A stretch of DNA of 64,000 nucleotides from Parcubacteria group bacterium Greene0714_7 (GCA_007378985.1 VMHB01000002.1:158273-222272), one strand, 5' to 3'; shown: positions 14,636-51,838, numbered from the stretch's first letter. Numbers and translations are program-made. Notes: generated from the letters alone by a model not told the origin.

Positions 14636-14711
14636 TGGTGCGCGGTGAGGGACTTGAACCCCCGACCTTCTCAGTGTAAATGAGTTGCTCTACCAACTGA
14701 GCTAACCGCGC
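14636..14711 (-). tRNA. tRNA-Val (anticodon TAC), CCA encoded
   Basis: reverse complement GCGCGGTTAGCTCAGTTGGTAGAGCAACTCATTTACACTGAGAAGGTCGGGGGTTCAAGTCCCTCACCGCGCACCA folds as canonical cloverleaf. Confidence 0.85.
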
Positions 14712-17695: not shown

Positions 17696-18397
17696 ATGGG
17701 AAAGCGTGGTCCAAAGCCAAGGCGTAAAAAACCTGTCGAATGGTCTTCTAATCTGGCATACGCCATCGGACTCATTGCTACGGACGGGTCTCTTTCTAAG
17801 AATGGACGGCATATTGAATTAACATCAAAAGATCGGGGGCAGTTGCAAACTTTCATGAGGTGTCTTGATATAGAGGTAAAAATCGGTATCAAAAAAGGTT
17901 ATGCCGATAAAACCGCGAACCGTGTTCAGTTTGGAGATGTGGTTTTTTATGATTTTCTTTTAGAGATTGGGCTTACTCCGAACAAAACTAAGACGATTGG
18001 AGCACTCGATATTCCTGACAAATATTTCTTTGATTTCTTGCGCGGGCATCATGATGGAGATGGGTCTTTTCATTCGTATTGGGATAAGCGTTGGAAATCG
18101 AGTTTCATGTTCTATCTTATTTTTGTGAGTGCAAGTAAGGAACACGTTGATTGGCTTCGTTCCAAACTGGAACGTTTTTTGGATGTACGGGGGCACATTA
18201 CGCACGGGAGAACGGCAACCGTATATCAGCTTAAATATGCGAAGGCTGAGTCTTTAAAAATTATCAAAAACATGTATTATTCCAATACAGTTCCTTGCCT
18301 CAAACGAAAAAGAGTTAAGATTTTTAAGGCTCTTCGTCGTGCAGGGAACTTGACAAAATTTGCCCAGGTGTTGAAACTGGTAGACATTTCACCTTGA
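17696..18397 (+). CDS. LAGLIDADG-family homing endonuclease, free-standing
   Basis: two LAGLIDADG motifs: LAYAIGLIATDGSL and FLRGHHDGDGSF; stop codon TGA lies inside anticodon loop of downstream tRNA-Leu. Confidence 0.75.
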   Translation: MGKRGPKPRRKKPVEWSSNLAYAIGLIATDGSLSKNGRHIELTSKDRGQLQTFMRCLDIEVKIGIKKGYADKTANRVQFGDVVFYDFLLEIGLTPNKTKTIGALDIPDKYFFDFLRGHHDGDGSFHSYWDKRWKSSFMFYLIFVSASKEHVDWLRSKLERFLDVRGHITHGRTATVYQLKYAKAESLKIIKNMYYSNTVPCLKRKRVKIFKALRRAGNLTKFAQVLKLVDISP

Positions 18398-18445
18398 GGT
18401 GGTGAAGCCCGCAAGGGCGTGGAGGTTCGAGTCCTCTCCTGGGCA
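18362..18445 (+). tRNA. tRNA-Leu (anticodon GAG), type II with long variable arm
   Basis: acceptor GCCCAGG/CCTGGGC, anticodon stem TCACC/GGTGA loop TTGAGGT, variable hairpin GCCC-GCAA-GGGC, T-arm GGAGG-TTCGAGT-CCTCT, discriminator A. Confidence 0.8.
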
Positions 18446-18506: not shown

Positions 18507-18582
18507 GGTGGTTGTAGCTCAGCTGGTAGAGCTCCGGTTTGTGGTACCGGCGGTCGTGGGTTCGAGCCCCATCAACCACCCA
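18507..18582 (+). tRNA. tRNA-His (anticodon GTG) with encoded G-1
   Basis: G-1 plus GTGGTTG acceptor pairing CAACCAC-C, D-arm GCTCAGCTGGTAGAGC, anticodon stem CCGGT/ACCGG loop TTGTGGT, T-arm GTGGG-TTCGAGC-CCCAT. Confidence 0.85.
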
Positions 18583-32415: not shown

Positions 32416-32479
32416 AAAAGTTGCTTACGTTCAAAGTATATTCTGAGATTACAGTTTTCGATTTTTAAGGCACAATGCG

Positions 32480-33220
32480 GTGATGGAAGTCACCGCATTT
32501 TCTATTGATATTCTTCACCCCCCGAAGGATGATTTATTTTCCAAAATAAAAGCATCCTCGCTTACTCTCGAGGAGGGCGATGTTGTGGCAATTTCATCAA
32601 AGGTTGTTTCTATATCTGAAGGTAGGTGTGTGGAGCGTGATTTTACAAAGAAGGATGAGTTAGTGAAACAAGAAGCTGACTGGTACATCCCACGTGAAGA
32701 CATGCGAGATGGTGCGGTGGTGCATACCATCACGAACGGTATTCTTATTCCCTCAGCGGGGATTGACCCATTAGGGCAATACTATGTTCTTTGGCCTGAA
32801 AACCCACAGAAATCTGCTGAGAAACTTTTAGAGTGGTTTAAGGAAACATATGGCGTAAAAAATCTGTACCTCATCATGACGGATTCTCGCAGCGTGTTCC
32901 TCCGCAAAGGTGTCGTAGGTATTGCGCTTGCGTGGGCAGGTTTTGAACCGATCTTTAGCAATAAAAACCGTATCGACATTCTCGGCACTCCCTCCGGTGG
33001 GAGTCAGACTAATATCCCAGACTCTCTCGCCGCTACAGCCTCTTTTGTGATGGGGGAGGCAAATGAGCAAACGCCTGTCGTGCGTATTCGGAACGCTCCT
33101 TTCATTGGTGACTCTAAGCATGTAAGTGCTGATTCCTTTTCTTCGACTATAGAGGAAGATCTCTTTGAGCCGTTTTTGAAAAATGTAGGGTGGCAGAAAG
33201 GTGAAGGGGAGAGGAGTTGA
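32480..33220 (+). CDS. CofE-like F420-0:gamma-glutamyl ligase family protein, paralog 2
   Basis: VVAISSKVVSISEGR, SAGIDPLG, GVVGIALAWAGF, NIPDSLAATASFVMGEANEQTP motifs; roughly 30 percent identity to paralog 1 by eye. Confidence 0.65.
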   Translation: MMEVTAFSIDILHPPKDDLFSKIKASSLTLEEGDVVAISSKVVSISEGRCVERDFTKKDELVKQEADWYIPREDMRDGAVVHTITNGILIPSAGIDPLGQYYVLWPENPQKSAEKLLEWFKETYGVKNLYLIMTDSRSVFLRKGVVGIALAWAGFEPIFSNKNRIDILGTPSGGSQTNIPDSLAATASFVMGEANEQTPVVRIRNAPFIGDSKHVSADSFSSTIEEDLFEPFLKNVGWQKGEGERS

Positions 33221-33569
33221 CGAGCCATCTTTTGGGGAGTACTTATATATACGTAGGGTAGTTATTAGAGTGATTAGTCAGCTTTATTATTTACTGCTAA
33301 GTATATGAATCTATCAGCACATGAGGCCTCGGGGGTAGGTGTTCGAAGGGGTCGAGGTAAAGAATCTGAATCAACATGTTCAAGTGCAAGGTCCGAGGGC
33401 GGTAAGCATGTATGGAGGTACTTCGGTGCGTATCCCGCATTGAGTCTTAAGGCACGGAAGGAGTGCATTAACTGCAATTTGTCACTTGTAGATAGGAATT
33501 AATCTCGTTCCCTCGCTGATTTTGAATGGTGTCCTTGACTTATGTATTTTTGTGCTGTAGTATATAGAA

Positions 33570-33788
33570 ATGCCAGAAAAACCAAAACGTTTTCCTCCAA
33601 ACATTTCGGCTAGGAGTCTAGTTGAAGGACGCCTTAAATATGTTGAGGATTGTCCTGGTGGCGGTAAGCACGACTGGGGCTCTGCAAACGCATTTACAGA
33701 GGTGGACAAAGGAAGTATGTCAGGGCACGTCTCTATTCTCGTGTGTTCAAAGTGCCACCAAGAAGCCCGTGTTCCGTTGACTGTCTAA
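33570..33788 (+). CDS. small Cys-containing hypothetical protein
   Basis: 72 aa; preceded by sigma70-like TTGACT-17-TAGTAT promoter at ~33536. Confidence 0.3.
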   Translation: MPEKPKRFPPNISARSLVEGRLKYVEDCPGGGKHDWGSANAFTEVDKGSMSGHVSILVCSKCHQEARVPLTV

Positions 33789-33794
33789 AAATCC

Positions 33795-34292
33795 TTAGGG
33801 TTTTCTCTCTAAGATTATAAAAGAGTACGAAATTCCTTCGTGCTCTTTTTTTTCTTCGGAAATAACTTTTGTGAATTCTGGGTACTCAGGAAAAAAGACA
33901 TCAGCTGGTTTCTCGTCATCGATAAGTGTGAGGTCGAGAGTATCAGTGTAGGGGAGTGCTAACTTGTATATTTCCCCGCCTCCTATAATAAAGATTTTCT
34001 CTTGGTCTAGTTCCCGTGCTTTAGCGAGGGCATCTTCAATGGTGTGTACCACAATGACACCCTCATGTGTATAGCCTGTGTCTCTTGTTACCACAATAGT
34101 TGGTCGTCCAGGGAGCGCTCTACCCATTGATTCAAAATTCTTTCGCCCACTGATAATCGGATGTCCGAGTGTTGCATCACGAAAATGTTTCATGTCCTCA
34201 GGGATCTTATAGATAAGATTATTATCCTTACCCAAACCCCTGTTCCTTCCTATTGCCGCAATAGCTATTATCTTTGCTTTTTGGTTTTGCAT
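33795..34292 (-). CDS. folA: dihydrofolate reductase
   Basis: IIAIAAIGRNRGLGKDNNLIYKIPEDMKHFRDATLGHPIISGRKNFESMG. Confidence 0.85.
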   Translation of the reverse strand: MQNQKAKIIAIAAIGRNRGLGKDNNLIYKIPEDMKHFRDATLGHPIISGRKNFESMGRALPGRPTIVVTRDTGYTHEGVIVVHTIEDALAKARELDQEKIFIIGGGEIYKLALPYTDTLDLTLIDDEKPADVFFPEYPEFTKVISEEKKEHEGISYSFIILERKP

Positions 34293-39184: not shown

Positions 39185-39430
39185 ATGAAAGAAAAAAATC
39201 ATGAGCAACTCCCTGTCATTGTAGAGTGGCCACTTACCAAATTGAATTTCAGTATGCTTCTAGGAATGATTGGGTCCTCAGAAGAAAAATCAACTGGTGT
39301 TCGTGTTGAGCACTGTCCAGTATGCAGGGGATGCGGAAAATCGATATTGCCTGGCGAATCAAAAATAAATATAGCTGGGGTCGTAAGTCACGATAAACCC
39401 TCCTGTGTTCTTGGTTGGTTCCAGAGGTGA
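39185..39430 (+). CDS. small Cys-rich hypothetical protein
   Basis: HCPVCRGCGK motif; 81 aa. Confidence 0.25.
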   Translation: MKEKNHEQLPVIVEWPLTKLNFSMLLGMIGSSEEKSTGVRVEHCPVCRGCGKSILPGESKINIAGVVSHDKPSCVLGWFQR

Positions 39431-39479
39431 GAGTGCAGTCTTTTTGTGGCATGCTTTAGCGAGGTATGATGGCGAAAGT

Positions 39480-41180
39480 ATGATTTCTGAGCGAATTATT
39501 GAAGCAATACAGGGAGCACTCGCGACCCTCGGTCTTGAAGGTGCGGTTGTGTTGGAGCACCCAGGGGATTTGTCTCACGGGGATTATTCAACGAACATTG
39601 CACTCGCTGTTGCAAAAAAAGCTGGGAAGAATCCGCGCGCGCTTGCGGATGAGATTGTGAAAAGCCTCGGGGTAATAGAGGGAGTTAAGAAGATAGAGAC
39701 GGCAGGAGCTGGATTCATTAACTTTCATCTCACACGCCCGTTCTTTTCTGAAAGTGTCTCAGTAATTACTGAGAGCGGGGAGTCGTGGGGTAGTAATGCA
39801 ACCCTGAAAGGAAAGAAGATAATTGTTGAGTACTCACAGCCAAATCCTTTTAAGCCATTCCACATTGGGCACCTGATGTCGACTACTGTTGGCGAAGCTA
39901 TTTCCCGTCTTGTTGAGTGGTCGGGCGCTGATATATATCGCGCTAACTATCAGGGAGACATTGGGCCTCATGTGGCAAAAGGAATTTGGGGATTGCAGAA
40001 AAATAACCTTGATCCTTCAAGTATTCAAGACCTCGGTGATGCGTATGTTATTGGAAATACCGCCTATGAAGACGATCCTGCCTCGAAAGCCGAGATTGAT
40101 TCAATTAATAAAAGACTCTACGAAGGTGATGTATCACTTCAGGATGTATATGACAAAGGTCGCAAAGCATCACTCGCACACTTTGAGGACTTATATCTGG
40201 TTCTTGGAACAAAATTCGACAAGTATTTTTTTGAAAGCGATGCGTGGCGTATCGGTCTTAAGATTGTAGAAGAAGGGAAGGTTCGTGGAATCTTTGAAGA
40301 GAGTGATGGGGCAATAGTGTTTAAGGGAGAAAAAGTAGGACTTCACACTCGTGTATTTGTCACTTCGAAAGGAACACCAACCTATGAAGCAAAAGAGCTG
40401 GGATTGGCTCAGATGAAACAACAGTCGTTCCCATTTGATCTTAATGTGACGACAATCGCAGTGGAGCAGGATGGTTATTTCAAAGTGGTGGAAGCTGCTA
40501 TGACAGAATTGTGGCCTGATATGGCAGGGAAGTACACGCACACGGCGTTTGGCATGATGCAGTTAACGAGCGGAAAGATGTCATCAAGAAAGGGCAACAT
40601 CATAACGGGCGAATCATTAATAGAAGACATGCGCGCCAAGGCGTTAGCAAAAATGGAGGGGCGTGCGTTTGAGTCTGAAGAAATAAAACGCGATGTCGCG
40701 GATGCCGTTGCTGTTTCTGCGATTAAATATTCCATTTTGAAGCAGTCGACAGGAAAAAATATTATTTTCGACCCTGAGGCGTCGCTTTCATTTGAAGGTG
40801 ATTCAGGTCCGTATTTACAGTACTCCTATGTGCGAGCGCAAGCAGTTCTTCGAAAAGCGAGGGCAGAAAAAATACCCGCGCTTGCAAGTGATTTGATATA
40901 TCAAATCAGTGAACTCATTCCTGAGGTTAGCGAGTTGGAGCGAGTACTCTACCGGTTTCCTGAAATAGTAGAGCGAGCACAAATGGAGCGTGAACCGCAT
41001 CACATAACTACATTTTTGACAGAGCTCGCTTCCGCATTCAATAGTTGGTATGCAACAGGGAAAATTGTTGATTCTACAGATACTCTGTCTCCTTACAAGG
41101 TCGCATTAACGCAGGCATTTGCGTTGACGATGAAAAATGGTCTCACTATTCTAGGTATCCGTGCCCCTGAGGCGATGTAG
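39480..41180 (+). CDS. argS: arginyl-tRNA synthetase
   Basis: PNPFKPFHIGHLMS (HIGH), ...TSGKMSSRKGN (KMSK-like), DALR anticodon-binding C-terminus; ATG at 39480. Confidence 0.9.
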   Translation: MISERIIEAIQGALATLGLEGAVVLEHPGDLSHGDYSTNIALAVAKKAGKNPRALADEIVKSLGVIEGVKKIETAGAGFINFHLTRPFFSESVSVITESGESWGSNATLKGKKIIVEYSQPNPFKPFHIGHLMSTTVGEAISRLVEWSGADIYRANYQGDIGPHVAKGIWGLQKNNLDPSSIQDLGDAYVIGNTAYEDDPASKAEIDSINKRLYEGDVSLQDVYDKGRKASLAHFEDLYLVLGTKFDKYFFESDAWRIGLKIVEEGKVRGIFEESDGAIVFKGEKVGLHTRVFVTSKGTPTYEAKELGLAQMKQQSFPFDLNVTTIAVEQDGYFKVVEAAMTELWPDMAGKYTHTAFGMMQLTSGKMSSRKGNIITGESLIEDMRAKALAKMEGRAFESEEIKRDVADAVAVSAIKYSILKQSTGKNIIFDPEASLSFEGDSGPYLQYSYVRAQAVLRKARAEKIPALASDLIYQISELIPEVSELERVLYRFPEIVERAQMEREPHHITTFLTELASAFNSWYATGKIVDSTDTLSPYKVALTQAFALTMKNGLTILGIRAPEAM

Positions 41181-41469
41181 TGAAACTTTTTTATAATCTC
41201 AGTAGTATGTATTGGTATGACATATAACGAAGGGCTAAGAGAAGATGGACTGGGAAGGCGTGGTTATCCAGATATAAGAATAAATGTTAGTCGTTCTTCT
41301 GAAGATATTAAAAAAAGTTTGGCGGAAAAAATAGCTGACGCAAAAGCTCGACTAAAAGAGTGGGGTATAGAGATTCCATTTTCGGCTTGACAGCGTTCGT
41401 TTTTAGAATATTCTTAAACATATGGCACGAGGCACGACCATCATTAAGATTACAAAGCGCTTTTCCAAG

Positions 41470-41548
41470 CGAAGGGGTTTTGTAGTGAACGCATAAGAAT
41501 AAATTACAAAAACATACAAAACCCCTTCGAAAGAAGGGGTTTTCTTTT
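41470..41548 (+). promoter_or_regulatory. candidate transcription attenuator (mutually exclusive hairpins) upstream of small zinc-ribbon ORF and ileS
   Basis: cgaaggggttttg (41470..41482) pairs with caaaaccccttcg (41517..41529), which overlaps the terminator hairpin aaaccccttcgaaagaaggggttttctttt (41518..41548). Confidence 0.4.
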
Positions 41549-41560
41549 AACTACAAATAT

Positions 41561-41746
41561 ATGTCCGAACAATTTGACTTTAGAACTTTTTTCCGCGATA
41601 CAGATCCATGTAGCCAGTGTAAAGGTAAGGGTAGGATTGTAGGGGGTAGTGGGATTGTGGGAGACAGTGGACGCATTCTTGAAAAGGTTTTCAGTGAAAT
41701 CCGATGTGGTAGGTGTAATGGAACGGGTAGGGTGCCACGAGATTGA
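41561..41746 (+). CDS. small zinc-ribbon protein (two CxxC pairs)
   Basis: CSQCKGKGR...CGRCNGTGR; 61 aa; immediately upstream of ileS. Confidence 0.4.
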   Translation: MSEQFDFRTFFRDTDPCSQCKGKGRIVGGSGIVGDSGRILEKVFSEIRCGRCNGTGRVPRD

Positions 41747-41788
41747 GTGTTGTTCTGTTGAATCAGTGTTGGACGATAATGTTAGTAT

Positions 41789-44700
41789 GTGATGAAGTTT
41801 ATGGATGGAGATACTAAAAGCGAACCCGCCAAGCGTGAGGAAGAAATTCTAGCTTTCTGGCAAAGGAACGAGATTTTTGAAAAAACCCTTTCCAAAGAGG
41901 CTCCAAAAGGGGAGTTTGTTTTTTATGATGGACCACCATTCGCTACTGGCTTGCCACATTACGGCCACATCCTCGCAGGCACCATTAAGGATGCTATTCC
42001 TCGTTACAAAACGATGCAAGGTTACCATGTGCCACGCCGTTGGGGTTGGGACTGCCACGGATTACCCTTAGAAAATCAAATAGAGAAAGAACTTGGTCTT
42101 GCAACGAAACGAGATATTGAAACTCTAGGGGTTGCAACATTTAATGAAGCCGCCCGCAAAGCCGTGCTTCGGTATTCGGATGACTGGAAGTCCATTATTC
42201 CTCGCTTCGGTAGATGGGTGGATATGGAGAATGACTATCGAACAATGGATGCAACGTACACGGAATCCGTGTGGTGGGCATTCAAGGATCTTCATAAGAA
42301 AGGTTTGGTGTATGAAGGATTTAAAGCAATGCACCTTTGTCCTCGCTGTGGCACCACGCTCTCTAACTTTGAAGTAGCGCAAGGGTACAAAGACATCACT
42401 GATATTTCTGTCACCGTAAAACTTGAGCTTGTTGATGAACCTGGAACATTTCTACTTGCATGGACAACTACGCCATGGACTTTGCCTGGAAACATGGCGG
42501 CTGCGGTGAACGCTGAATTTACGTATGTAAAGATTTCAGCGGGGAATGAAAAATATATTCTCGCTAAAGACAGGTTGGAAGTAATTAAAGTTGACTACAA
42601 AATAGAGAAAGAATTTCTTGGTAGTGAACTTGTTGGTAAATCATACAAGCCTCCGTTCTCGTATTTCGCTGATCACAATATCAAAGGAAAAGAAAAAGCG
42701 TGGAAGGTGTATCACGCTCCATATGTGACGATGGATAGTGGAACAGGCTTAGTACATCTTGCCCCTGCATTTGGTGCCGAAGATTTGGAGCTCGCGCAAA
42801 AAGAGGGAATCCCGATAGTGCACCACGTCGACAAGGACGGTTTTTTTGTTGATGCTGTTTCAGATTTTAAAGGACTTCAGGCAAAGCCAAAAGACGACCC
42901 ACAATCAACTGATGTTGCAGTTATTAAATATCTTGCAGGGAAGGGCTTGTTGTTTGCAAAAGAAAAAATTATACACTCGTATCCGCATTGTTGGCGATGT
43001 GATACGCCGCTTTTAAATTACGCATCATCATCGTGGTTTGTAGAGGTGACAAAATTCAAAGACAAAATCGTAGCTGAAAATAAAAAAATAAACTGGGTAC
43101 CAAAAGAAGTGGGGGATAAGAGGTTTGGAAACTGGCTTTTAAACGCTAGAGATTGGGCAATTTCACGTGCTCGGTACTGGGGTGCACCAATTCCTGTATG
43201 GCGCAATCACAAAACGAAAGAGAATGTATTCATTGGCTCGCTAGATGAGCTGAAATCGTACACGAAAAAATCTGGTAACAAGTATTTCACCATGCGTCAT
43301 GGGGAGAGTACAAAGAATGTCGCTGGTATAATTCGATCTCGTTTGGAAGATGACGATATACATCTTACTGAGAAAGGTAGAGCAGAGGCACTGGCTTCTG
43401 CAAATGCCTTTAAACATTCAGAAATAAATCGCATCGTAGTTTCTCCTTTTATTCGCGCCAAGGAAACAGCTGAAATTGCTCGGGAGGTTTTTGGTCTTCC
43501 GAAGAGTTCAGTTTCATATGATGAGCGACTTATTGAGTATAGGCACGGTACTTTTGATAGGAAGCCAGAAAGATCATTCTGGGATCATTATGTGACTTCT
43601 GCTAATGCATATGAGGTAGGCCCCGAGAGTGGTGAAAGTGCGCGGGAGATGGGGGCACGTATGGCTGAAGTATTGTATGAGCTTGAACAAAAATATAAAG
43701 GAGAGAACATTCTTATCGTCTCCCACGAATGGCCGCTACTTGCCCTCACTGCTCTTGCTCACGGATATTCTAAAGAAAGAACAGTCCGTATCCTCAATAA
43801 AATAGAAGACCATATTCAGCCAGGAGAAATTCGTGAACTTCCATTTGTCCCACTTCCGCACAACGAAAACTTTGAGCTTGATTACCATCGCCCATATATC
43901 GATGAGGTAGTGCTTATAGACACCGATGGCACGAGGCTTGAGCGTGTACACGATGTTTTTGATTGCTGGTTTGAATCGGGCTCAATGTCGTATGCTCAGA
44001 ATCATTATCCATTTGAAAACAAAAATAAGTTTGATCCGAAGCCGGGGTGGCTCAAGAAGTCCCGTGGCTACCCAGCGGATTTTATTGCTGAAGGATTAGA
44101 TCAAACAAGAGGTTGGTTTTATTCGCTCCTTGTCTTGGGGGTGGGGCTTTTCGGCAAAGCAACCTATAAGAATGTAATTGTGAACGGAATTGTTTTGGCA
44201 GAAGACGGGCAAAAGATGTCGAAGCGTTTGAAAAATTATCCTGACCCACTCACTGTGCTCGAAAAATACGGCGCAGATGCTATCCGCTATTACCTCCTTG
44301 CGTCACCTTTAATGAAGGCAGAAGATTTAAATTTTTCAGAGAAGGGAGTGGGAGAAGTCGCGTCGAAACTCATCGGACGATTTTTGAATGTCGTCTCTTT
44401 CTATGAGCTCTATAAAGACTTGGAGCACGGAGTGTCTCCAAGTTCTCACCCTCTCGATAGATGGATTTTTTCACGATTGAATCAAGTTATTGGAGAAGTT
44501 GAGAAGGGAATGGAATCCTATGAGCTCGATAAGGCAACGCGCCCACTTACTCTTTTTGTGGACGATTTGTCGACATGGTATCTCAGGCGTTCTCGCGATC
44601 GCTTTAAAGAGGAAGGGGCTGACGCAAGAGACGCACTTCAAACACTTCGTAGCGTTATAGAAATTTTTGCAAAAATATCAGCACCTTTCATGCCGTTTGT

Positions 44701-45277
44701 CGCCGAAAGCGCCTACCAGAGAGTGAAAACTAAAGACATGCCAGAGAGCGTGCATTTGTGTGAGTGGCCACGCACGGGTTCTACTGACGCACCACTTCAA
44801 GAAGCAATGGTGGAAGTCAGGCGCATTGCATCGCGAGGGCTCGAAGCGAGGCAGAAGGTGGATATAAAAGTGAGACAACCACTTGCAAAAATAACAGTGA
44901 ATAGTGAACTGTTAGCAGGAAGAGTAGAGCTTCTGCAATTAATAAAAGATGAGCTCAATGTGAAGGAGGTTGTCATCGACGGAGTGCTATCGAAAGATGA
45001 AGCGATACTTGATACTGATATTTCAGATGAGTTGAAAGAGGAAGGTAATGTGCGCGAAGTAATTCGCTTTATTCAAGAGCTTCGCAAAGAGGCAGGACTT
45101 ACACCAAAAGAGACGGCAACATTGGTGTTTGTTCAGAGTGATGACATAGAGAAGTTTTTAGAAAAGCATTGGCATACTCTCAGTACTGCCACCAGACTCT
45201 CATCAAGAGAATTAGGTAATGGTACAAATGAATTGGTGTTTGATGGAATGACATTTAGGTTCAATGTCCGTTCGTGA
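41789..45277 (+). CDS. ileS: isoleucyl-tRNA synthetase (type 2, eukaryote-like) with embedded histidine phosphatase (PGAM-family) domain
   Basis: PPFATGLPHYGHIL (HIGH), TTPWTLPGN editing motif, KMSKRLKN; between ...GAPIPVW...LKSYTKKSG and ...VHDVFDCWFESGSM lies ~200 aa with RHGESTKN and ...ILIVSHEWPL... phosphoglycerate-mutase-type catalytic motifs (approx nt 43278..43876). Confidence 0.85.
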   Translation: MMKFMDGDTKSEPAKREEEILAFWQRNEIFEKTLSKEAPKGEFVFYDGPPFATGLPHYGHILAGTIKDAIPRYKTMQGYHVPRRWGWDCHGLPLENQIEKELGLATKRDIETLGVATFNEAARKAVLRYSDDWKSIIPRFGRWVDMENDYRTMDATYTESVWWAFKDLHKKGLVYEGFKAMHLCPRCGTTLSNFEVAQGYKDITDISVTVKLELVDEPGTFLLAWTTTPWTLPGNMAAAVNAEFTYVKISAGNEKYILAKDRLEVIKVDYKIEKEFLGSELVGKSYKPPFSYFADHNIKGKEKAWKVYHAPYVTMDSGTGLVHLAPAFGAEDLELAQKEGIPIVHHVDKDGFFVDAVSDFKGLQAKPKDDPQSTDVAVIKYLAGKGLLFAKEKIIHSYPHCWRCDTPLLNYASSSWFVEVTKFKDKIVAENKKINWVPKEVGDKRFGNWLLNARDWAISRARYWGAPIPVWRNHKTKENVFIGSLDELKSYTKKSGNKYFTMRHGESTKNVAGIIRSRLEDDDIHLTEKGRAEALASANAFKHSEINRIVVSPFIRAKETAEIAREVFGLPKSSVSYDERLIEYRHGTFDRKPERSFWDHYVTSANAYEVGPESGESAREMGARMAEVLYELEQKYKGENILIVSHEWPLLALTALAHGYSKERTVRILNKIEDHIQPGEIRELPFVPLPHNENFELDYHRPYIDEVVLIDTDGTRLERVHDVFDCWFESGSMSYAQNHYPFENKNKFDPKPGWLKKSRGYPADFIAEGLDQTRGWFYSLLVLGVGLFGKATYKNVIVNGIVLAEDGQKMSKRLKNYPDPLTVLEKYGADAIRYYLLASPLMKAEDLNFSEKGVGEVASKLIGRFLNVVSFYELYKDLEHGVSPSSHPLDRWIFSRLNQVIGEVEKGMESYELDKATRPLTLFVDDLSTWYLRRSRDRFKEEGADARDALQTLRSVIEIFAKISAPFMPFVAESAYQRVKTKDMPESVHLCEWPRTGSTDAPLQEAMVEVRRIASRGLEARQKVDIKVRQPLAKITVNSELLAGRVELLQLIKDELNVKEVVIDGVLSKDEAILDTDISDELKEEGNVREVIRFIQELRKEAGLTPKETATLVFVQSDDIEKFLEKHWHTLSTATRLSSRELGNGTNELVFDGMTFRFNVRS

Positions 45278-45848
45278 AGTAACAGCTCGAGGGATTATAG
45301 TTGCTAGGCGCTCAGCCGGAGAGGGTAGTGTGCGTATTTCTATATATACGGACTCGTTAGGACTTGTTTCCGCTCTCGCTAAAAGTGCCCGTGAAGAACG
45401 ATCAAAGCTTCGCCCACACCTACAGGTTGGGACAACGGGCGTTTTTGTTTTGGTGAAAGGTCGCGATGTGTGGCGTGTTATTGGTGCTACAAAAACTGAG
45501 AATTCGCATTTTGCACTTTCAGGTAATACAAAAGCTCAAGAAGTTACGGCCCGGGTTATCACAATAGTTAGGCAGTTTATTCGGGGAGAAGGCAGTGATC
45601 CATATCTTTTTAGTGCGCTGTTTGGATTCTTTCGCATCATCCCAAGCGTCGATGAGGAGTATGTACTTGAAGCGGAATGCATTGTGGTACTTCGGGTACT
45701 CGCAGCATTAGGGTATGTGCGAGAGGATCCTATAATGAAGTTGTTTTTAGATATTTCGTACGATATGCCAACTTTGAAAGCGGTGCGTGAATCACGGGGC
45801 ACACTTGTTCGCCTTATTAACGAGGCTATTTCTGAAAGTGGACTGTGA
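45264..45848 (+). CDS. recO: DNA repair protein RecO-like (short form)
   Basis: N-terminal OB-fold pattern GIIVARRSAGEGSVRISIYTDSLGL; overlaps ileS end by 14 nt. Confidence 0.5.
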   Translation: MSVREVTARGIIVARRSAGEGSVRISIYTDSLGLVSALAKSAREERSKLRPHLQVGTTGVFVLVKGRDVWRVIGATKTENSHFALSGNTKAQEVTARVITIVRQFIRGEGSDPYLFSALFGFFRIIPSVDEEYVLEAECIVVLRVLAALGYVREDPIMKLFLDISYDMPTLKAVRESRGTLVRLINEAISESGL

Positions 45849-45850
45849 AG

Positions 45851-45883
45851 TTAGCTTTTAGCTTACAGCTTTTAGCTTTCAGG
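45851..45883. repeat. degenerate tandem repeat tagctttta/gcttacagctttta/gctttcagg
   Basis: read directly downstream of recO stop. Confidence 0.7.
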
Positions 45884-45911
45884 GAGGAAATTGCCCCCTC
45901 TTCTCTCTGTA

Positions 45912-45947
45912 TTAAAGCTGGAAGCTGACAGCTGAAACCTGTAAGCT
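45912..45947. repeat. inverted copy of the 2532..2567 intergenic repeat
   Basis: attaaagctggaagctgacagctgaaacctgtaagct = reverse complement of 2532..2567. Confidence 0.8.
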
Positions 45948-45953
45948 AATGAG

Positions 45954-47807
45954 ATGTCCGACAACGGTGCACTCGAAAATCTTTCAAAAAAACTAGACAG
46001 CGGGTTAGTTGATGGAAGCATTCATCGCTCAACCCTTTTCTCACGCAGTTCGCGCGCTCCTAAGGGATGGCAGAAACAGGAAGGAGGTGATGTGTCGGCT
46101 AGGCCAAAGGGGCGACGTATGAAGATCCCTGAAATACTCTTTGGTGGCTCGGTTATTTTTTTCTTTCTCGCTGTTGCAGTCGCGGGGGTAATTTTGTTTG
46201 CTGGCAATAACACAATCTCAACTAAGAACGTCGATGTTCAGGTGACTGGCCCGACAGAAATTGGTGCCGGAAGCACGCTTTCTTTGCAGGTTGTTATAAC
46301 AAACAGAAATGCTGTGCCGATGGAACTCACTGACTTAATTATAGAATTCCCCGCAGGTACGCGGTCAGATACAGATATTTCTCGTGAACTTCCACGCATT
46401 CGAGAGTCGCTAGGGACTATTAAATCTGGTGAGAGTATTAATCGTACAATCCGTGCTGTTGTTTTTGGTGAGTCAGGGCAGGATCTCTCTATTAAAGCTT
46501 CGGCGGAATACCGTGTACCTTCTTCGAATGCTATTTTTGTGAGCGAAACTACGTATGTGACAAAAGTTAATCAGTCACCAGCATCTATTACTATTGATGC
46601 CCTCAAGGAGGCAGTATCAGGACAACCTGTGACATTCTCCGTGTCGGTAGTATCGAATGCTCCGGGGGTTTTGAAAGATATGCTTCTTGTTGCAAATTAT
46701 CCTCCGGGATTTTCTTTTGAATCTTCAAAGCCAGCGCCTACGGTAGGCACTGCATCGTGGGCACTTGGAGACATAGAAGCAGGCGGTACACGCACCGTGG
46801 AAGTGAAAGGTGTTTTTGTTGGTGAAGATGGCGAGAGCAGGGTGCTTCGTTTTAACACGGGAACTCAGAAGATAGATAATAGTGATGCAATCATAGCTCC
46901 GCTCGCGGCGTCTGAACTTTCACTTACCGTAACAAAGCCTTTCGTTTCCGTCGCACTCTCGCTTGAAGGTTCTACTTCTGACACACACACAATTATTCGT
47001 GGACGAGAAGTGCAAGGGCAGGTGACATGGACAAACAATCTTCCAGTGAAGGTTCAAAATGTTGCCATCACACTTACCTTAGACGGGGCTATTTTAGATC
47101 GAAGTACGGTGCAAGCAGAAAAAGGATTCTATAGTTCAAATAATTCATCAATACTTTGGAGTAAGGCAACTAATTCAAATCTTTCAAATGTTGCCCCAGG
47201 GGACTCAGAGACACTTTCATTTTCATTCAAGACACTTCCTTTAAATAAGGGCGACTTTAAAAATTCGACTGTGCGCCTGTCGGTTAATGTGGAGGCAGAG
47301 AGACAAAGTGAATCAAACGTTCCTGTTATCGTTAAGTCATCCGCTACAACAAATGCCGTTGTTGCAACAGATGTAACGCTTTCTCCATCGATAACGAATA
47401 TGGCGGGACCCGTATCACCAAAGGCCGATAAGGAAACAACCTACACTGTCACCTGGATCGTTTTGAATTCGGCAAATGCATTAGCCAATACTTCTGTGAG
47501 TGCGATATTGCCAAGTTATGTGCGTTTCATTGCGCCCGAAGCTGGGTCAAATATTTCTTTCAATGCCTCTGGCCGTATTGTCACTTGGGCTATTGGAGAT
47601 GTGGCAGGGGGGCAAACAAAAAATGCTTCATTCAAAGTAGGAATGACCCCGTCTCTCACTCAAGTAGGAAATGTACCAACGATAGTCGGTAGTCAGCGAG
47701 TGTCTGCCTATGACCGATTTGTGAGAGGTCAGATTGAAGCTACGGCAGGACCATTAACAACTGGCTCAGCTTCAGGTGTACCGAGCGGAGGTGTTGTAGT
47801 GCCATAA
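45954..47807 (+). CDS. large membrane-anchored surface protein with beta-sandwich (DUF11/CARDB-like) repeats
   Basis: cytoplasmic basic N-terminus, single TM SVIFFFLAVAVAGVILFAG, ~550-aa Thr/Ser/Val-rich extracellular region. Confidence 0.45.
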   Translation: MSDNGALENLSKKLDSGLVDGSIHRSTLFSRSSRAPKGWQKQEGGDVSARPKGRRMKIPEILFGGSVIFFFLAVAVAGVILFAGNNTISTKNVDVQVTGPTEIGAGSTLSLQVVITNRNAVPMELTDLIIEFPAGTRSDTDISRELPRIRESLGTIKSGESINRTIRAVVFGESGQDLSIKASAEYRVPSSNAIFVSETTYVTKVNQSPASITIDALKEAVSGQPVTFSVSVVSNAPGVLKDMLLVANYPPGFSFESSKPAPTVGTASWALGDIEAGGTRTVEVKGVFVGEDGESRVLRFNTGTQKIDNSDAIIAPLAASELSLTVTKPFVSVALSLEGSTSDTHTIIRGREVQGQVTWTNNLPVKVQNVAITLTLDGAILDRSTVQAEKGFYSSNNSSILWSKATNSNLSNVAPGDSETLSFSFKTLPLNKGDFKNSTVRLSVNVEAERQSESNVPVIVKSSATTNAVVATDVTLSPSITNMAGPVSPKADKETTYTVTWIVLNSANALANTSVSAILPSYVRFIAPEAGSNISFNASGRIVTWAIGDVAGGQTKNASFKVGMTPSLTQVGNVPTIVGSQRVSAYDRFVRGQIEATAGPLTTGSASGVPSGGVVVP

Positions 47808-47907
47808 ACTGGGCATAGCTTTTAGTTTTTGGGGAGGATACAATCATTCAATGCAAAAAGAAGAAGGATGCCGTATTACAATGAGTGTTATCGTAGCAAA
47901 GTAATAT

Positions 47908-49287
47908 ATGGATACTCTCGCAAATTCGAACGAAAAACACTCTGGGCATGACGCCGAACTTCACAACCGGATGGAGAAGATTACATCGCTTGCAAAGCGA
48001 CGAGGTTTTATTTTTCCAGGCTCTGAAATATATGGAGGTCTTTCAGGTACCTATGACTACGGCCCGTTAGGTGTTGCGCTGAAGAATAATGTAAAGAATC
48101 TCTGGTGGCGGATGTTCGTTGATAGTCGTGATGATGTATACGGTGTTGATGCTGCAATTTTAATGAATTCAAAAGCGTGGGAAGCGTCCGGGCATGTTTC
48201 TGGTTTCTCTGATCCGTTGGTTGAATGTAAAAAATGTAAACGACGTTTTCGTGCCGATCATCTTGAGGGTGGGAAGAGGTGTCCTGAGTGTGAGGGTGAG
48301 CTCGGCGAAGCGCGTCAGTTCAACATGATGTTTAAGACACATGCGGGCGCTACTGAAGATGAGTCTTCAGTCGTATATCTTCGACCTGAAACCGCTGGAG
48401 GTATTTTCGTCAACTTTAAGAATATTATTGATACCTTTCATCCAAAGCTACCGTTTGGTATAGCGCAAATTGGCAAAGCATTCAGGAATGAAATTGCACC
48501 ACGCGACTTTGTATTTCGTTCAAGAGAGTTTGAGCAGATGGAGCTTGAATACTTTGTTAATGAAAATTCGTGGGAGAGCGCGTTTGAGGAATGGAGAAAG
48601 GGTATGGTGCACTTTGCAAAAGTGTGTGGTTTATCAATGGATTCCTTCCACTCTAAAGATATAGAGGCAGGGGACTTGGCGCACTACAGTAAAAAGACTA
48701 TCGATTTTGAATTCGATTTTCCTTTCGGACGAGGTGAGCTCTGGGGGTTGGCGTACCGAGGTGATTTTGATCTTTCTGCGCACGAAAAAGGCTCAACTGT
48801 TGAATTGAAATATTCTGATGGAGAAGGCGCAAAAATTACTCCCCATGTAATTGAGCCATCGCTTGGTGTTGATCGTACTGTGCTCGCAATTCTCGCGAGT
48901 GTGTATAAGGAAGATGTGGTGGGGGATGATACGCGTGTTTACCTTGCATTTCCATCTCACATAGCTCCCATCAAAGCCGCGGTGTTTCCTCTTTTGAAGA
49001 ATAAGCCAGAGCTTGTAGAGAAAGCGCGAGAAGTATACACGGCACTTAAAAAGAAGGTGCCTCAGGTTATGTGGGACGATAATGGCAACATTGGCAAGCG
49101 GTATCGTAGACAAGATGAGATAGGTACACCGTGGTGCATTACTATTGATTTCGATACTCTCGGCGAAAACCCTGAACAAAAAGATACCGTTACGGTGCGA
49201 AACAGAGACACTGGCTCACAAGAGCGAATGCCTATCGATACGGCAATAGAAATGGTGGCAAGAGGTGTATCCCTGTATCTACAATAG
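47908..49287 (+). CDS. glyQS: glycyl-tRNA synthetase (class II, alpha2 type)
   Basis: FIFPGSEIYGGLSGTYDYGPLG, class II motifs 2 and 3, C-terminal anticodon-binding domain. Confidence 0.9.
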   Translation: MDTLANSNEKHSGHDAELHNRMEKITSLAKRRGFIFPGSEIYGGLSGTYDYGPLGVALKNNVKNLWWRMFVDSRDDVYGVDAAILMNSKAWEASGHVSGFSDPLVECKKCKRRFRADHLEGGKRCPECEGELGEARQFNMMFKTHAGATEDESSVVYLRPETAGGIFVNFKNIIDTFHPKLPFGIAQIGKAFRNEIAPRDFVFRSREFEQMELEYFVNENSWESAFEEWRKGMVHFAKVCGLSMDSFHSKDIEAGDLAHYSKKTIDFEFDFPFGRGELWGLAYRGDFDLSAHEKGSTVELKYSDGEGAKITPHVIEPSLGVDRTVLAILASVYKEDVVGDDTRVYLAFPSHIAPIKAAVFPLLKNKPELVEKAREVYTALKKKVPQVMWDDNGNIGKRYRRQDEIGTPWCITIDFDTLGENPEQKDTVTVRNRDTGSQERMPIDTAIEMVARGVSLYLQ

Positions 49288-49307
49288 AGTGGTGCTAGAA
49301 TAGCCAC

Positions 49308-50366
49308 ATGGACACTCGGCCTCTCACCATCAACATCACGCCAGGTTCTTTTTGGGCAGGGGTAGGAATCGGCTTACTCTTATGGTTACTTTTCTTTCTT
49401 AGAGATCTTGTTCTTATTGTCCTCACTGCTATTGTCCTCTCCTCGGCAGTAGAACCAGGTGTGCATTGGTTTGTGAAGAAGCGTTTCCCTCGCGCTGTTG
49501 CAGTGCTATCAATTTATGCATTGATTGTAGGAGTATTTTTAGGAATCATTTATCTTTTGTTACCACCCCTTGTTGAAGAAGTACGAGGGTTTATTGTTGA
49601 TCTCCCACAGTTCTTGAGCTCCCTCCGTATTGATAGTATTTTCGGAGGCTCTACGGTGAGTGCACTCCAACCATTTATTCCTCACGAATTTTCTGCAGCA
49701 CTTCTTGCGCAATTGCAAAGTTTCGTTATCCCGACTGGACAAGGAGCCCTCCAAGCTGTGTACAGTATCTTTGGCGGTATCATTTCTTTTATTTTGATAA
49801 TCATTTTATCGATCTACTTTGCATTTCAAGAAACAGGTGTGGACGATTTTCTCAAGATTGTTATACCAGTGAAGCATCAGCACTACGCACTTGATTTATG
49901 GAAGCGATCCCGTCATAAGATTGGTCTTTGGATGCAAGGACAACTCATTCTTTCCCTCATCATCGGTGTACTAGGCTACCTCTGGCTTTCTATTCTTCAA
50001 GTGCCGTATGCATTTCTTATTGCTATTTTTGCAGCCTGTGTAGAAATTATTCCTATGTTTGGTTCGCTCGTCTCAGGAACACTTGCAGTTATCATAGGGG
50101 CAACAACAGGAGGAACCCAGCTCGCACTCTTTGTTGCAGGAGGCTTTCTTGTTATTAACCTCCTTCAGTCAAATCTTATTTATCCTTTGGTAGTGAAGCG
50201 GGTAGTGGGAGTACCTCCGCTCATGGTTATTTTGGCAATGATTGCAGGAGGACAGCTTGCAGGCTTCTACGGCATACTTCTCGCTGTTCCTCTAGCGGCT
50301 GCACTTCAAGAATTCGTGACTGACATAGAAAAATCAAAAACCCGTGAACTCGCTGAATTGAAATGA
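49308..50366 (+). CDS. AI-2E family transporter (PerM/UPF0118)
   Basis: 8-TM pattern with LVLIVLTAIVLSSAVEPGVHWF N-terminal motif. Confidence 0.7.
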   Translation: MDTRPLTINITPGSFWAGVGIGLLLWLLFFLRDLVLIVLTAIVLSSAVEPGVHWFVKKRFPRAVAVLSIYALIVGVFLGIIYLLLPPLVEEVRGFIVDLPQFLSSLRIDSIFGGSTVSALQPFIPHEFSAALLAQLQSFVIPTGQGALQAVYSIFGGIISFILIIILSIYFAFQETGVDDFLKIVIPVKHQHYALDLWKRSRHKIGLWMQGQLILSLIIGVLGYLWLSILQVPYAFLIAIFAACVEIIPMFGSLVSGTLAVIIGATTGGTQLALFVAGGFLVINLLQSNLIYPLVVKRVVGVPPLMVILAMIAGGQLAGFYGILLAVPLAAALQEFVTDIEKSKTRELAELK

Positions 50367-51838
50367 TTGATAGTCCGATGCGCACCTTTTATCTCACCAC
50401 CACACTCCCATACGTTAATGCCGACCCTCACATTGGGTTTGCGCTCGAGCTTGTGCAAGCCGACGCACTTGTTCGCTTTTGGCGTTCACAGGGGAACGAA
50501 GTGTTCTTTAGTACAGGTACAGATGAGCACGGTCAGAAAATATACGAGGCTGCAGAAAAGGCAGGGAAGAGTACGCAGGAATATGTCGACTACTATGCGA
50601 ATGAATTTCAGCGCCTCAAAGGAACATTGGGGCTATCGGAAGATTTGCATTTTATTCGCACTACGAGTCCTCACCACAAGCTCGCAGCTGAGGAGATGTG
50701 GAAGAGGTGTATGGCAAAGGGTGATATTTATAAAAAAGAATTTGAAGGATTGTACTGCGTTGGGTGTGAGAAGTTCTTAACTCAAAAAGAAATCATTAAC
50801 GATCTGTGTCATATTCATAAAACGACTCCGCAACTTTTAAAAGAAGAAAATTATTTCTTCAAATTCTCAAAGTATCAAGAGAGACTTCTTGAATATTTAA
50901 ATCGTTCTGATGTCGTAATTCCCGAATGGCGCAGAAACGAAGCCATAAATTTTGCCACGGAAGGGTTGGAGGATTTCAGTATTTCTCGAGAAAAGAGCAA
51001 GCTCACGTGGGGCGTGCCTGTTCCTGGCGACGACACTCAAGTGATGTATGTTTGGTTTGAGGCGCTCATCAATTACATTTCGACGCTTGGTTGGCCGGAA
51101 GATGCAGAGGGGAATTTCCAGAAATTCTGGGAAGAAGGACACACGCTTCAGATGGCAGGGAAAGACCAGGTTCGTTTTCAATCGCTCATGTGGCAGGCGA
51201 TGCTTATGTCCGCCGACATTAAAAATACTGACCAAATTTTCTACCACGGCTTTATAAATTCTGGTGGACAAAAGATGTCCAAATCTATCGGCAATGTCAT
51301 TAGTCCCTATGAACTAGTTCAAAAATACGGAACTGAAGCAACGCGGTATCTTTTACTCCGTCATGTGCACTCAACCGAGGATACGGATGTGACGTGGGAG
51401 AAATTAGATGAATGGTACACGGCAGGACTGGTAAACGGAATTGGCAATCTCGTGGCGCGGGTGATGAAGCTTGCGGAGGATAACTTGGACGCACCCATTT
51501 CTCCCGGGCAACCCTCGAATCCTCCAGGGTTTGATAACGCCATGACGTCTTTTGATTTCAACCGGGCAATGAATAGCACATGGGAGAAAATCGGTCTGGT
51601 TGATGTACGCATCACTGAAGAGGAGCCATTCAAGATTGTAAAGACTGACCCCTTGGAAGGCAGTCGGATAATCGGAGAGCTTGTCCACGACATATACGAT
51701 ATATCGTATATGCTCGAATCGTTTATGCCTGATACGAGTAAAAAAATCCTTTATGCAGTCAAAGAAAACAAAAAACCAGAAAACTTATTCCCTCGGCTTG
51801 CTGAACCATCTCGCGAAGGTAGCTCACGCCGTGGATAG
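50363..51838 (+). CDS. metG: methionyl-tRNA synthetase
   Basis: YLTTTLPYVNADPHIGFA (HIGH-type), GQKMSKSIGN (KMSKS), zinc knuckle CVGCEKF. Confidence 0.9.
   Translation: MIDSPMRTFYLTTTLPYVNADPHIGFALELVQADALVRFWRSQGNEVFFSTGTDEHGQKIYEAAEKAGKSTQEYVDYYANEFQRLKGTLGLSEDLHFIRTTSPHHKLAAEEMWKRCMAKGDIYKKEFEGLYCVGCEKFLTQKEIINDLCHIHKTTPQLLKEENYFFKFSKYQERLLEYLNRSDVVIPEWRRNEAINFATEGLEDFSISREKSKLTWGVPVPGDDTQVMYVWFEALINYISTLGWPEDAEGNFQKFWEEGHTLQMAGKDQVRFQSLMWQAMLMSADIKNTDQIFYHGFINSGGQKMSKSIGNVISPYELVQKYGTEATRYLLLRHVHSTEDTDVTWEKLDEWYTAGLVNGIGNLVARVMKLAEDNLDAPISPGQPSNPPGFDNAMTSFDFNRAMNSTWEKIGLVDVRITEEEPFKIVKTDPLEGSRIIGELVHDIYDISYMLESFMPDTSKKILYAVKENKKPENLFPRLAEPSREGSSRRG

Follow-up and report, generated by a model that had tools for sequence, protein, structure and literature searches.

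A histidine phosphatase domain inserted in the CP3 of Patescibacteria isoleucyl-tRNA synthetases: a putative enzymatic partner of the synthetase

Introduction

Aminoacyl-tRNA synthetases count among the enzymes studied in most depth. Time and again, new biology has come from their accessory domains, be these for editing, for tRNA binding or for signalling. In the histidine phosphatase superfamily, the substrate specificity is usually set by a cap region. The superfamily includes Rv2419c (a glucosyl-3-phosphoglycerate phosphatase), PspA and CobC (a phosphoserine phosphatase and an alpha-ribazole phosphatase, respectively), as well as protein phosphatases with a reduced cap (SixA, PGAM5 and Sts-1). 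In isoleucyl-tRNA synthetases (IleRS), connective peptide 3 (CP3) joins CP2 to the second half of the Rossmann fold and has a beta-beta-alpha-alpha topology; it corresponds to residues 459-526 in S. cerevisiae and 473-534 in Candida (PMC7955072, PMC7191050). The CP3 of T. thermophilus bears a zinc knuckle (PMC7191050). Reveromycin and the tRNA 3′ end bind in a pocket whose lining is formed in part by the CP2-CP3 linker (PMC7955072). The present work deals with the ileS gene of Parcubacteria group bacterium Greene0714_7 (GCA_007378985.1, VMHB01000002.1:158273-222272), which encodes an IleRS with a histidine phosphatase domain inserted in CP3. The window is the whole stretch of 64,000 nucleotides that was analysed; positions are counted from its first letter. 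The query is the IleRS encoded by the window.

The preferred reading, to which a probability of roughly 0.55 is given, is that an active phosphomonoesterase of about 190 amino acids is embedded in the CP3 of the housekeeping IleRS of a Patescibacteria bacterium of Parcubacteria/Paceibacteria type and is functionally partnered with this enzyme. The observations that lead to this reading, the points that weigh against it and the rival explanations are given below. Some of the claims considered come from an earlier note on the window, referred to as the sequence-only reading.

The host gene and the insert

The host gene encodes a complete type-2 IleRS. The protein is 100% identical to P0139, deposited as 'isoleucyl-tRNA synthetase [Parcubacteria group bacterium Greene0714_7]'. 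It scores 898.3 bits with the ileS model TIGR00392 (cutoff 621.4), although the insert splits the match. The Pfam domains found in the open reading frame (ORF) are tRNA-synt_1, Anticodon_1, DUF5915 and His_Phos_1. The HIGH, KMSKS and editing motifs are invariant across an alignment of 70 sequences. The closest solved structures are the IleRS of yeast, Candida and T. thermophilus and the IleRS2 of P. megaterium (E 1e-209 to 1e-224); the type-1 IleRS of S. aureus gives only E 1e-88. The enzyme is assigned to type 2 because the eukaryote-like or type-2 chains score far better than the type-1 chain. It scores far below the cutoff of the models of the mupirocin-resistance IleRS MupA and MupB (NF000257, 700.8 bits; NF000258, 713.1 bits; cutoff 1900). 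No second IleRS is encoded by the 64-kb window.

The tRNA-synt_1 match is broken into two stretches, between which His_Phos_1 is found (PF00300, amino acids 502-665; 105.4 bits, E 3.8e-30, gathering cutoff 21.7). In the alignment with the yeast-type IleRS 8wnd, residues 15-492 of the query correspond to residues 12-492 of the chain and residues 697-1065 to residues 498-885; about 204 residues are present in the query where 8wnd has 5. The insertion point corresponds to yeast residues 492-498, i.e. the turn between both helices of CP3 (SLDELKSY and LDYHRPYIDEV). The insert contains no stop codon, no N, no frameshift and no compositional step.

According to AlphaFold2 (AF2), the insert folds when modelled alone (predicted local distance difference test, pLDDT, 90; predicted TM score, pTM, 0.88) and within the full-length protein (pLDDT 88.8, pTM 0.83; ten-residue blocks over amino acids 491-690 score 79-97). 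A Foldseek search with the predicted fold gives PhoE, Rv2419c, PspA and dPGM with a probability of 1.00, TM scores of 0.67-0.74 and 20-26% identity. CobC and TIGAR are further neighbours; together with PhoE/YhfR, Rv2419c and PspA, they belong to the small branch-1 phosphomonoesterase group. The insert is thus confidently modelled as an autonomous alpha/beta domain of phosphoglycerate-mutase-like fold.

The sequence-only reading had described a type-2 IleRS with a phosphatase inserted at 43200-43950, in the surface linker between ELKSYTKKSG and LDYHRPYIDEV, and had proposed an HMM search with PF00300 and a structure prediction as checks. This description holds in all these respects. The TIGR00392 score agrees with an IleRS, the E-values with type 2, and every motif is found where it had been placed. 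The interval correctly brackets the insert (Table 1), which replaces the 5-residue connector of 8wnd. Both phosphatase signatures, RHGESTKN and SHEWPL, are present. The hidden Markov model (HMM) score is far over its cutoff and the domain folds in both models.

Catalytic residues and subfamily

Conservation was analysed in 119 fusion proteins, whose inserts are 29-58% identical to that of the query, except for one relative at 86%. R503, H504, R556, H646, N497, G530 and S552 are invariant; G505, N510, R580, E583 (97%), E616 and R624 are at least 90% conserved. The sequence-only reading had allowed for the loss of the catalytic His or Arg on proper alignment; R503, H504, R556, E583 and H646 are all in register, and their conservation is 97-100% in the 119 fusions. 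They are conserved in the standalone homologues as well. According to the mechanism of the family, H504 would attack the phosphoryl group, R503 and R556 would hold this group together with N510 and H646, and E583 would protonate the leaving group. Judged from these residues, the insert is very probably catalytically active, with H504 as the nucleophile. The polypeptide would consist of two enzymes: a synthetase part that keeps activation, transfer and editing, and an insert that keeps the full phosphomonoesterase set.

In the cap (amino acids 588-614), not one position is at least 90% conserved in the 119 fusions. Six IleRS fragments (P0031, P0034, P0085, P0098, P0048 and P0315) have an insert devoid of about 30 cap residues (HMM positions ~88-120), a minimal form of the domain.

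Several identities were considered for the insert and rejected. Its scores are below the cutoffs of the models of dPGM (NF038349 dPGM_arch, 66.6 bits vs 225; GpmB, 41.8 vs 261), CobC (TIGR03162, 57.9 vs 162.9), PspA (NF045917, 47.1 vs 350) and SixA (TIGR00249, 33.5 vs 74.5). The consensus around the Glu, D.RL.E...G.F.GK, is unlike ERHYG, the mutase-type consensus. The substrate is not readable from homology, since no curated equivalog model is reached. A known anti-phage defence protein was also rejected: the insert and the free-standing homologues P0002 and P0014 have no match in PADLOC-DB at E<=0.01.

Distribution of the fusion

The insert is widespread. PF00300 is carried by 119 of the 120 best IleRS clusters (55-100% identity, 1110-1211 amino acids), which come from many projects. 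An exhaustive HMMER search with amino acids 478-712 against 1.84 billion representatives of 50%-identity clusters gives 498 matches at E<=1e-10; among the best 150 of these 498, most align through both IleRS flanks. In GTDB, a degenerate DNA pattern for the C-terminal junction was found in at least 120 species representatives. At least 114 of them encode the phosphatase and at least 104 show both IleRS flanks within 8 kb. An HMM search of the stop-to-stop ORFs gives at least 115 loci with a phosphatase match. The ORF is uninterrupted over at least 1050 amino acids in at least 67 of them; at least 45 further matching loci are merely cut by the end of the locus. The closed chromosome CP060229.1 (Nomurabacteria) has an intact fusion ORF of 1211 amino acids. 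According to the record titles, the carriers are Paceibacterota and Nomura-, Zambryski-, Adler-, Lloyd-, Taylor- and Kaiserbacteria. Many third-party annotation (TPA) records are labelled 'Saccharibacteria'; this label is regarded as generic and is unconfirmed.

The survey of orthologues proposed in the sequence-only reading thus recovers the insert in nearly all the nearest IleRS and in many species. The same reading had pointed to an assembly chimera as a possible artefact, i.e. a mis-joined contig that would make a false fusion, and the source is a metagenome-assembled genome (MAG). There is practically no chance that this explains the gene: the ORF is uninterrupted, its composition is even, and the same architecture recurs in hundreds of independent assemblies from many projects, with conserved synteny, and in one closed chromosome.

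Split IleRS genes, with a break at the insert, were considered on account of numerous PF00133+PF00300 proteins of about 530 amino acids; those inspected are N- or C-terminally truncated fragments. An IleRS-phosphatase gene of CAZDWR010000005.1 (L111, 1782-5234) contains 21 in-frame TGA, 19 of which align with a Trp of the query. UGA is therefore apparently decoded as tryptophan in this Patescibacteria-like MAG. In the insert encoded by this gene, RHA stands in place of RHG.

Free-standing homologues adjacent to ileS

Free-standing Patescibacteria phosphatases of 180-200 amino acids align end to end with the insert, from N-x-Y...RHG to [AG]EIREL. Because of this end-to-end alignment, the insert corresponds to one whole gene's worth of protein. 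The free-standing proteins form two groups. Group 1 (P0002, P0003, P0004 and P0006) is 46% identical to the CP3 inserts (150 bits) vs 34% to group 2 (87 bits). The gene of P0002 is located between argS and an insert-less ileS of 953 codons, 17 nt upstream of ileS (L129). That of P0006 is located between argS and an insert-less ileS of 972 codons in two loci (L130 and L131). That of P0003 follows an ArgRS-like ORF, at a contig end. The neighbouring synteny (argS, ileS, recO, CLIPPER-domain protein) is the same as in the window. The IleRS encoded next to P0002 and P0006 share 41% identity; their identity to the query is only 36% and 52%. Since these IleRS are so dissimilar, the pairing of the phosphatase with ileS outlasts the divergence of IleRS. 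The two members of group 2 that were checked, P0014 and P0016, are not encoded near ileS.

The occurrence of the phosphatase either fused with IleRS or encoded next to it is the strongest evidence that both may work together. The best reading is that the phosphatase would be a Patescibacteria-specific subfamily functionally partnered with IleRS. The odds are even that this partnership is mechanistic and goes beyond co-expression.

The main rival explanation is that a broad or metabolic housekeeping phosphatase became adjacent to ileS by chance and then entered a tolerant loop, the only benefit being co-expression in a streamlined genome. This is possible, at a clearly lower probability than the partnership. 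Against it, the adjacency persists beside IleRS as divergent as those described above. The absence of the checked group 2 genes from the vicinity of ileS suggests that the association is specific to the subgroup nearest the inserts. An internal insertion is also unlike the outcome of a simple read-through fusion of neighbours.

Variant architectures

The CP3 site accounts for 201 phosphatase domains, i.e. most of those that could be placed. Other arrangements are rare. P0395 (1468 amino acids) has two copies in CP3; in P0348 (1419 amino acids), one copy follows WFESGSMPYA and the other is located in the anticodon-binding domain. Every complete copy keeps the RHG motif and the second catalytic His; copies of the same protein are 27-51% identical. 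P0378 (1395 amino acids; L139, 4001-8188) is encoded by a complete mid-contig ORF and has a CP3 phosphatase and, after WFESGSMPYA, a P-loop kinase-like domain. The latter has a Walker A motif (GACGAGKTT) and barely exceeds the cutoff of each of three models (AAA_18, 32.8 bits; AAA_33, 27.7; Zeta_toxin, 25.6). In P0283 (L136, 366-3947), a fragment of valyl-tRNA synthetase (ValRS), one phosphatase precedes and at least three follow WCISRQ...RIPVWY. This array is only suggestive, because its contig is short (3.9 kb) and of low coverage (2x), and because the fourth copy contains a TAA in frame, beyond which the frame continues.

P0347 (L138, 4001-7201) is encoded by an IleRS-like ORF whose editing domain contains, in frame, a REP-associated tyrosine transposase (RAYT) domain; a phosphatase in CP3 and then a GNAT domain are also present, and the ORF ends after the GNAT. 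It was discounted as evidence, being probably a truncated or decayed copy: no C-terminal IleRS half is found downstream. It may be a decaying paralogue.

The variants bear on the main rival in both directions. The same loops receive a P-loop kinase-like domain or a GNAT, which suggests permissive sites and would suit a housekeeping phosphatase that merely shares a transcript. The phosphatase itself recurs in several loops, possibly also in ValRS, which this rival does not readily explain.

Exchange, selection and loss of the insert

The insert alleles are exchanged between closely related IleRS. The query and P0140 are 98% identical in the IleRS body and 51% in the insert; P0142 and P0145 are 97-99% identical in the body and 49% in the insert. 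The query and P0142 are 97% identical in the N-terminal body, 79% in the C-terminal body and 86% in the insert; for P0140 and P0145, these values are 96%, 78% and 90%. All four combinations of body and insert types exist, hence recombination occurred. The window is 93-97% identical to the DNA of a sister strain (L001, GCA_020049755.1) over about 24 kb, except that the alignment breaks off at 43305 and is taken up again at 43856. The synonymous divergence between both strains is 0.31 in the N-terminal body, 0.17 in the C-terminal body and 0.05 in the tail; it is saturated in the insert (proportion of synonymous differences, pS, 0.76). Since synonymous sites are saturated in the insert alone, its divergence reflects its history and not its rate of evolution. 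The C-terminal body and the tail of IleRS are also shuffled among strains, but neither diverges nearly as far as the insert alleles.

The C-terminal domain (44909-45274, amino acids 1041-1162) is itself mosaic: P0147 is 88% identical to the query in the N-terminal body and 40% in the tail, and P0142 is 97% and 68% identical, respectively.

Within the same allele class (query and P0142), the ratio of nonsynonymous to synonymous divergence (dN/dS) of the insert is 0.085 at a dS of 0.9. It resembles that of the C-terminal IleRS body (0.098), which indicates a strong purifying selection on the insert.

A selfish in-frame passenger could also account for part of these data: the tolerant loop of an essential gene would be a safe harbour, as for an intein, and the element would spread by recombination. 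The cassette-like exchange with breakpoints at conserved junctions, the tandem arrays, the multiple sites, the occasional clean absence of the insert and the RAYT domain in frame in P0347 (discounted as likely decayed) would fit such an element. This explanation is nevertheless very improbable. The five catalytic residues are conserved over a deep divergence and dN/dS is low, which indicates that the enzymatic activity itself is selected; the shuffling of the C-terminal body and tail shows that mosaicism is not special to the insert. Features of inteins or homing endonucleases are absent (junctions G/N and HN/E). An intein proper was rejected. Its hallmarks are an N-terminal Cys or Ser, a C-terminal His-Asn followed by Cys, Ser or Thr, and Hint-domain blocks; here the junctions are KKSG/NKYF and PHN/ENFELD (the slash marks the junction), PF00300 covers the whole insert and no Hint-family match is found.

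Putative function

The sequence-only reading had proposed aminoacyl-adenylate, Ap4A or a phosphorylated regulator as substrates. As phosphodiesters or anhydrides, aminoacyl-adenylate and Ap4A have no phosphomonoester at an end; given the general chemistry of the superfamily, both are unlikely substrates. The phosphorylated regulator is still a possible one.

Under the partnership reading, the phosphatase would occur in different states: as a separate gene upstream of ileS, embedded in CP3 in a large clade, and, rarely, duplicated or in other loops. As a weak guess, doubtful in itself, the synthetase could present the substrate, the likeliest candidate being a terminal 2′/3′-phosphate or -pyrophosphate of the tRNA acceptor end that would block aminoacylation; the specificity would then come from tethering to IleRS and not from the unconserved cap. 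Three points speak for this guess: the cap is unconserved, or absent in some variants; CP3 adjoins the CP2-CP3 linker that lines the pocket of the tRNA 3′ end; and tRNA whose CCA end has undergone a phosphoryl modification is documented to be blocked for aminoacylation (PMC11559606; bioRxiv 10.1101/2021.04.30.441581).

Several points weigh against the partnership reading or against a role at the tRNA end. The nearest structural relatives (Foldseek) act on small molecules and not on RNA or protein. The insert reaches no curated equivalog model. The inserts are slightly acidic on average (net charge -3.8), which does not suggest an RNA-binding surface. A role at the tRNA end would be expected in more than one or two synthetases. 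P0167, a syntenic close relative known from two independent assemblies, is devoid of the insert and has only ELKRYSVTHELPRNEKGEVDVHRPYIDE instead; L024 is likewise devoid of it. No second phosphatase copy or remnant is found in the window or on the contigs of P0167. The module is therefore dispensable in at least some backgrounds, since both P0167 and L024 do without it. A finely co-evolved interface is disfavoured because the alleles swap freely between IleRS backgrounds; this free swapping would be equally compatible with a loosely tethered general phosphatase. The small-molecule folds, the variable cap, the lack of a specific equivalog, the interchangeable alleles and the possible loss of the insert are also the points that favour the housekeeping phosphatase acquired by chance.

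A wider version of the tRNA-end role is improbable. In this version, interchangeable accessory enzymes would dock on surface loops of the class Ia synthetases of Patescibacteria, chiefly on CP3, and would act there on the acceptor end of the bound tRNA or on ligands of the active site. The usual docked enzyme would be the histidine phosphatase, at times in divergent tandem copies; at times it would be a P-loop kinase-like domain or a GNAT. The phosphatase would be an 'acceptor-end cleaner': it would strip a 2′/3′-phosphate or pyrophosphate left by tRNases or added by toxSAS-type toxins and so restore chargeability. The rapid replacement of alleles would reflect a conflict with toxSAS-type or tRNase toxins.

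The insert could also be a cis-acting protein phosphatase that clears an inhibitory phosphate from the synthetase (e.g. in the KMSKS loop); this removal would protect the synthetase from a kinase toxin or would be a means of regulation. Phosphorylation of a serine in the KMSKS region is how HipA-type kinases inhibit class I synthetases. This precedent, the existence of reduced-cap protein phosphatases in the superfamily and the cap-less variants described above would suit such a role, and the allele turnover could fit an arms race. HIGH, KMSKS and the CP2-CP3 linker form a cleft, of which CP3 is also a neighbour (PMC7955072). The explanation is unlikely all the same: the SixA model is not reached, the full cap is kept in most inserts, no kinase partner is seen in the window or in the related loci examined, and the free-standing form encoded next to ileS would forfeit the advantage of acting in cis.

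Locus and neighbouring genes

The features of the ileS locus are given in Table 1.

Table 1. Features of ileS, of its insert and of the neighbouring synthetase genes in the window.
Feature	Amino acids (a)	Nucleotides	Strand (b)	Remarks
argS (ArgRS)		39405..41180	+	Conserved upstream neighbour of ileS
ileS, complete	1-1162	41789..45277	+	Single long ORF; type-2 IleRS with embedded phosphatase
IleRS N-terminal part	1-496	41789..43276	+	First half of the Rossmann fold, CP core, CP1 editing, CP2, first half of CP3
HIGH motif, PHYGHIL	56-62 (HYGH, 57-60)	41954-41974	+	Motif location
Editing motif, TTPWTLPGN	227-235	42467-42493	+	In CP1
CP2-CP3 linker, WAISRARYWG	Within 1-496		+	Matches ARDWxxSRxRYWG
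ELKSYTKKSG	487-496		+	Just N-terminal of the insert
Inserted histidine phosphatase	497-696	43277..43876	+	Domain proper from N497 to ~F686; return linker VPLPHNENFE
RHGESTKN	503-510	43295..43318	+	R503, nucleophile H504 and N510; R503 and H504 invariant, N510 >=90% in fusions
Exchanged insert allele tract		43305..43856	+	Blastn similarity to L001 lost inside
R556 (SPFIRAKETA)	556	43454..43456	+	Second phosphate-binding Arg; invariant in 119 fusions and in standalone homologues
E583 (D.RL.E...G)	583	43535..43537	+	Predicted proton donor, by homology with His_Phos_1; 97% conserved
Cap region	588-614	43550..43630	+	Unconserved; lowest pLDDT of the domain
SHEWPL	645-650	43721-43738	+	Motif location
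H646 (ILIVSHEWP)	646	43724..43726	+	Second catalytic His; invariant in fusions and in standalone homologues
IleRS C-terminal part	697-1162	43877..45274	+	Second half of CP3, second half of the Rossmann fold, anticodon-binding domain, C-terminal DUF5915
LDYHRPYIDEV	697-707		+	Motif location
FDCWFESG	724-731		+	Motif location
KMSKR	809-813	44213-44227	+	Motif location
Class II tRNA-synt_2b/HGTP_anticodon enzyme		47908-49287		Domain match
MetRS-like ORF, 491 amino acids		50363-51838		MetRS-like
a Amino acid positions refer to the product of ileS. b The strand is given as in the window.

Four synthetase genes are found in about 12 kb (39405-51838); among them are recO and the genes of a CLIPPER-domain protein and an AI-2E transporter. 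L001 and L005 have the same gene order. The gap of 600 nt between argS and ileS contains two small ORFs (41217-41390 and 41561-41746). One of them encodes 57 amino acids and is identical in L001. The other encodes about 60 amino acids with two CxxCxGxG motifs, which resemble a DnaJ-type zinc finger; it differs strongly between the window, L001 and L005 (blastn similarity lost at ~41548-41778), with flanks that are 89-97% identical. Both ORFs are absent from the insert-less relative L003 (ERZ25039472 contig_93330), where the spacing between argS and ileS is 25 nt. In L003, the genes encoding SHMT, the class II synthetase and the AI-2E transporter are each split in two and ileS is intact; these splits could be assembly indel errors or gene decay.

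A leader RNA or T-box upstream of ileS was looked for and rejected: at the gathering threshold, Rfam finds only five tRNA genes in the 64-kb window (3693-3764, 8448-8532, 14639-14711, 18362-18445 and 18508-18580), none of them near ileS. Another tract, 32469-34279, is 84% identical to L001 vs 97-99% for the neighbouring tracts; it is probably another recombination patch.

Significance

Three independent lines tie the phosphatase to IleRS: its insertion, its adjacency in other lineages and its repeated insertion at other loops. In a very abundant uncultured radiation, an apparent housekeeping IleRS would contain a second, apparently active centre of different chemistry. Should the target of this centre be the tRNA end, the synthetase or an active-site ligand, the phosphatase would add a new level of quality control, or of resistance to toxins, to translation, and would make the physiology of Patescibacteria accessible to concrete tests. 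If the domain is a mere passenger, it would still show neatly how a domain is inserted in an essential enzyme and exchanged as a cassette in nature, which is of use in protein engineering.

Comparison with known systems

Both families are well known and inserted catalytic domains are known in synthetases; the phosphatase in CP3 is new to the literature searched. In this literature, no description was found of an IleRS-phosphatase fusion, of its gene-neighbour counterpart or of the allele exchange, and nothing was found on GNAT-bearing IleRS. The architecture, of which the sequence-only reading knew no description, is thus absent from the literature searched; it is nonetheless plentiful and machine-annotated (PF00133+PF00300) in public protein databases.

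The insert resembles PhoE/YhfR (1H2E, 1EBB), Rv2419c, PspA and CobC in its fold (TM ~0.7), its RHG, Arg, Glu and His residues and its size (~190-210 amino acids). It differs from PhoE, Rv2419c, PspA and CobC by a low identity (20-26%), an unconserved cap, N-x-Y before RHG, a C-terminal [AG]EIREL and the tie to ileS. The Rv2228c-type RNase H/acid phosphatase (NF005567) is likewise a CobC-like phosphatase fused to a nucleic-acid enzyme, but it is a terminal RNase H fusion in actinobacteria, without any synthetase; the insert matches the phosphatase half of this model with 61 bits (cutoff 326).

Pnkp and the small alarmone hydrolases that reverse toxSAS toxins are functional analogues only, in that they remove a terminal phosphate that blocks tRNA (PMC11559606); their folds (HAD, metallophosphoesterase or HD) are unrelated. 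The phosphatase and the P-loop kinase-like domain of P0378 recall, again by analogy only, the kinase-phosphatase pairing of Pnkp.

The CP1 editing domain, the INS domain of ProRS and the GNAT-bearing IleRS of NF040702 are, like the insert, autonomous catalytic folds in a synthetase loop. These are deacylases or a GNAT, whereas a phosphatase is found here, and the site is CP3. Synthetases with extra enzymes are not unprecedented, since NCBIfam catalogues NF040702 ('isoleucine--tRNA ligase, N-acetyltransferase domain-containing'); the query scores 312.6 bits with this model, below the cutoff of 1999. The query shares its domain order and its HIGH, KMSKS and editing motifs with the type-2 IleRS of T. 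thermophilus (1ILE), the IleRS2 of Priestia megaterium (8C8U) and the cytoplasmic IleRS of yeast and Candida (7D5C, 6LDK and 8WND). None of the solved or described IleRS has a phosphatase; where they have a connector of 5 to 10 residues or a zinc knuckle, the IleRS of the window has an enzyme of 200 amino acids.

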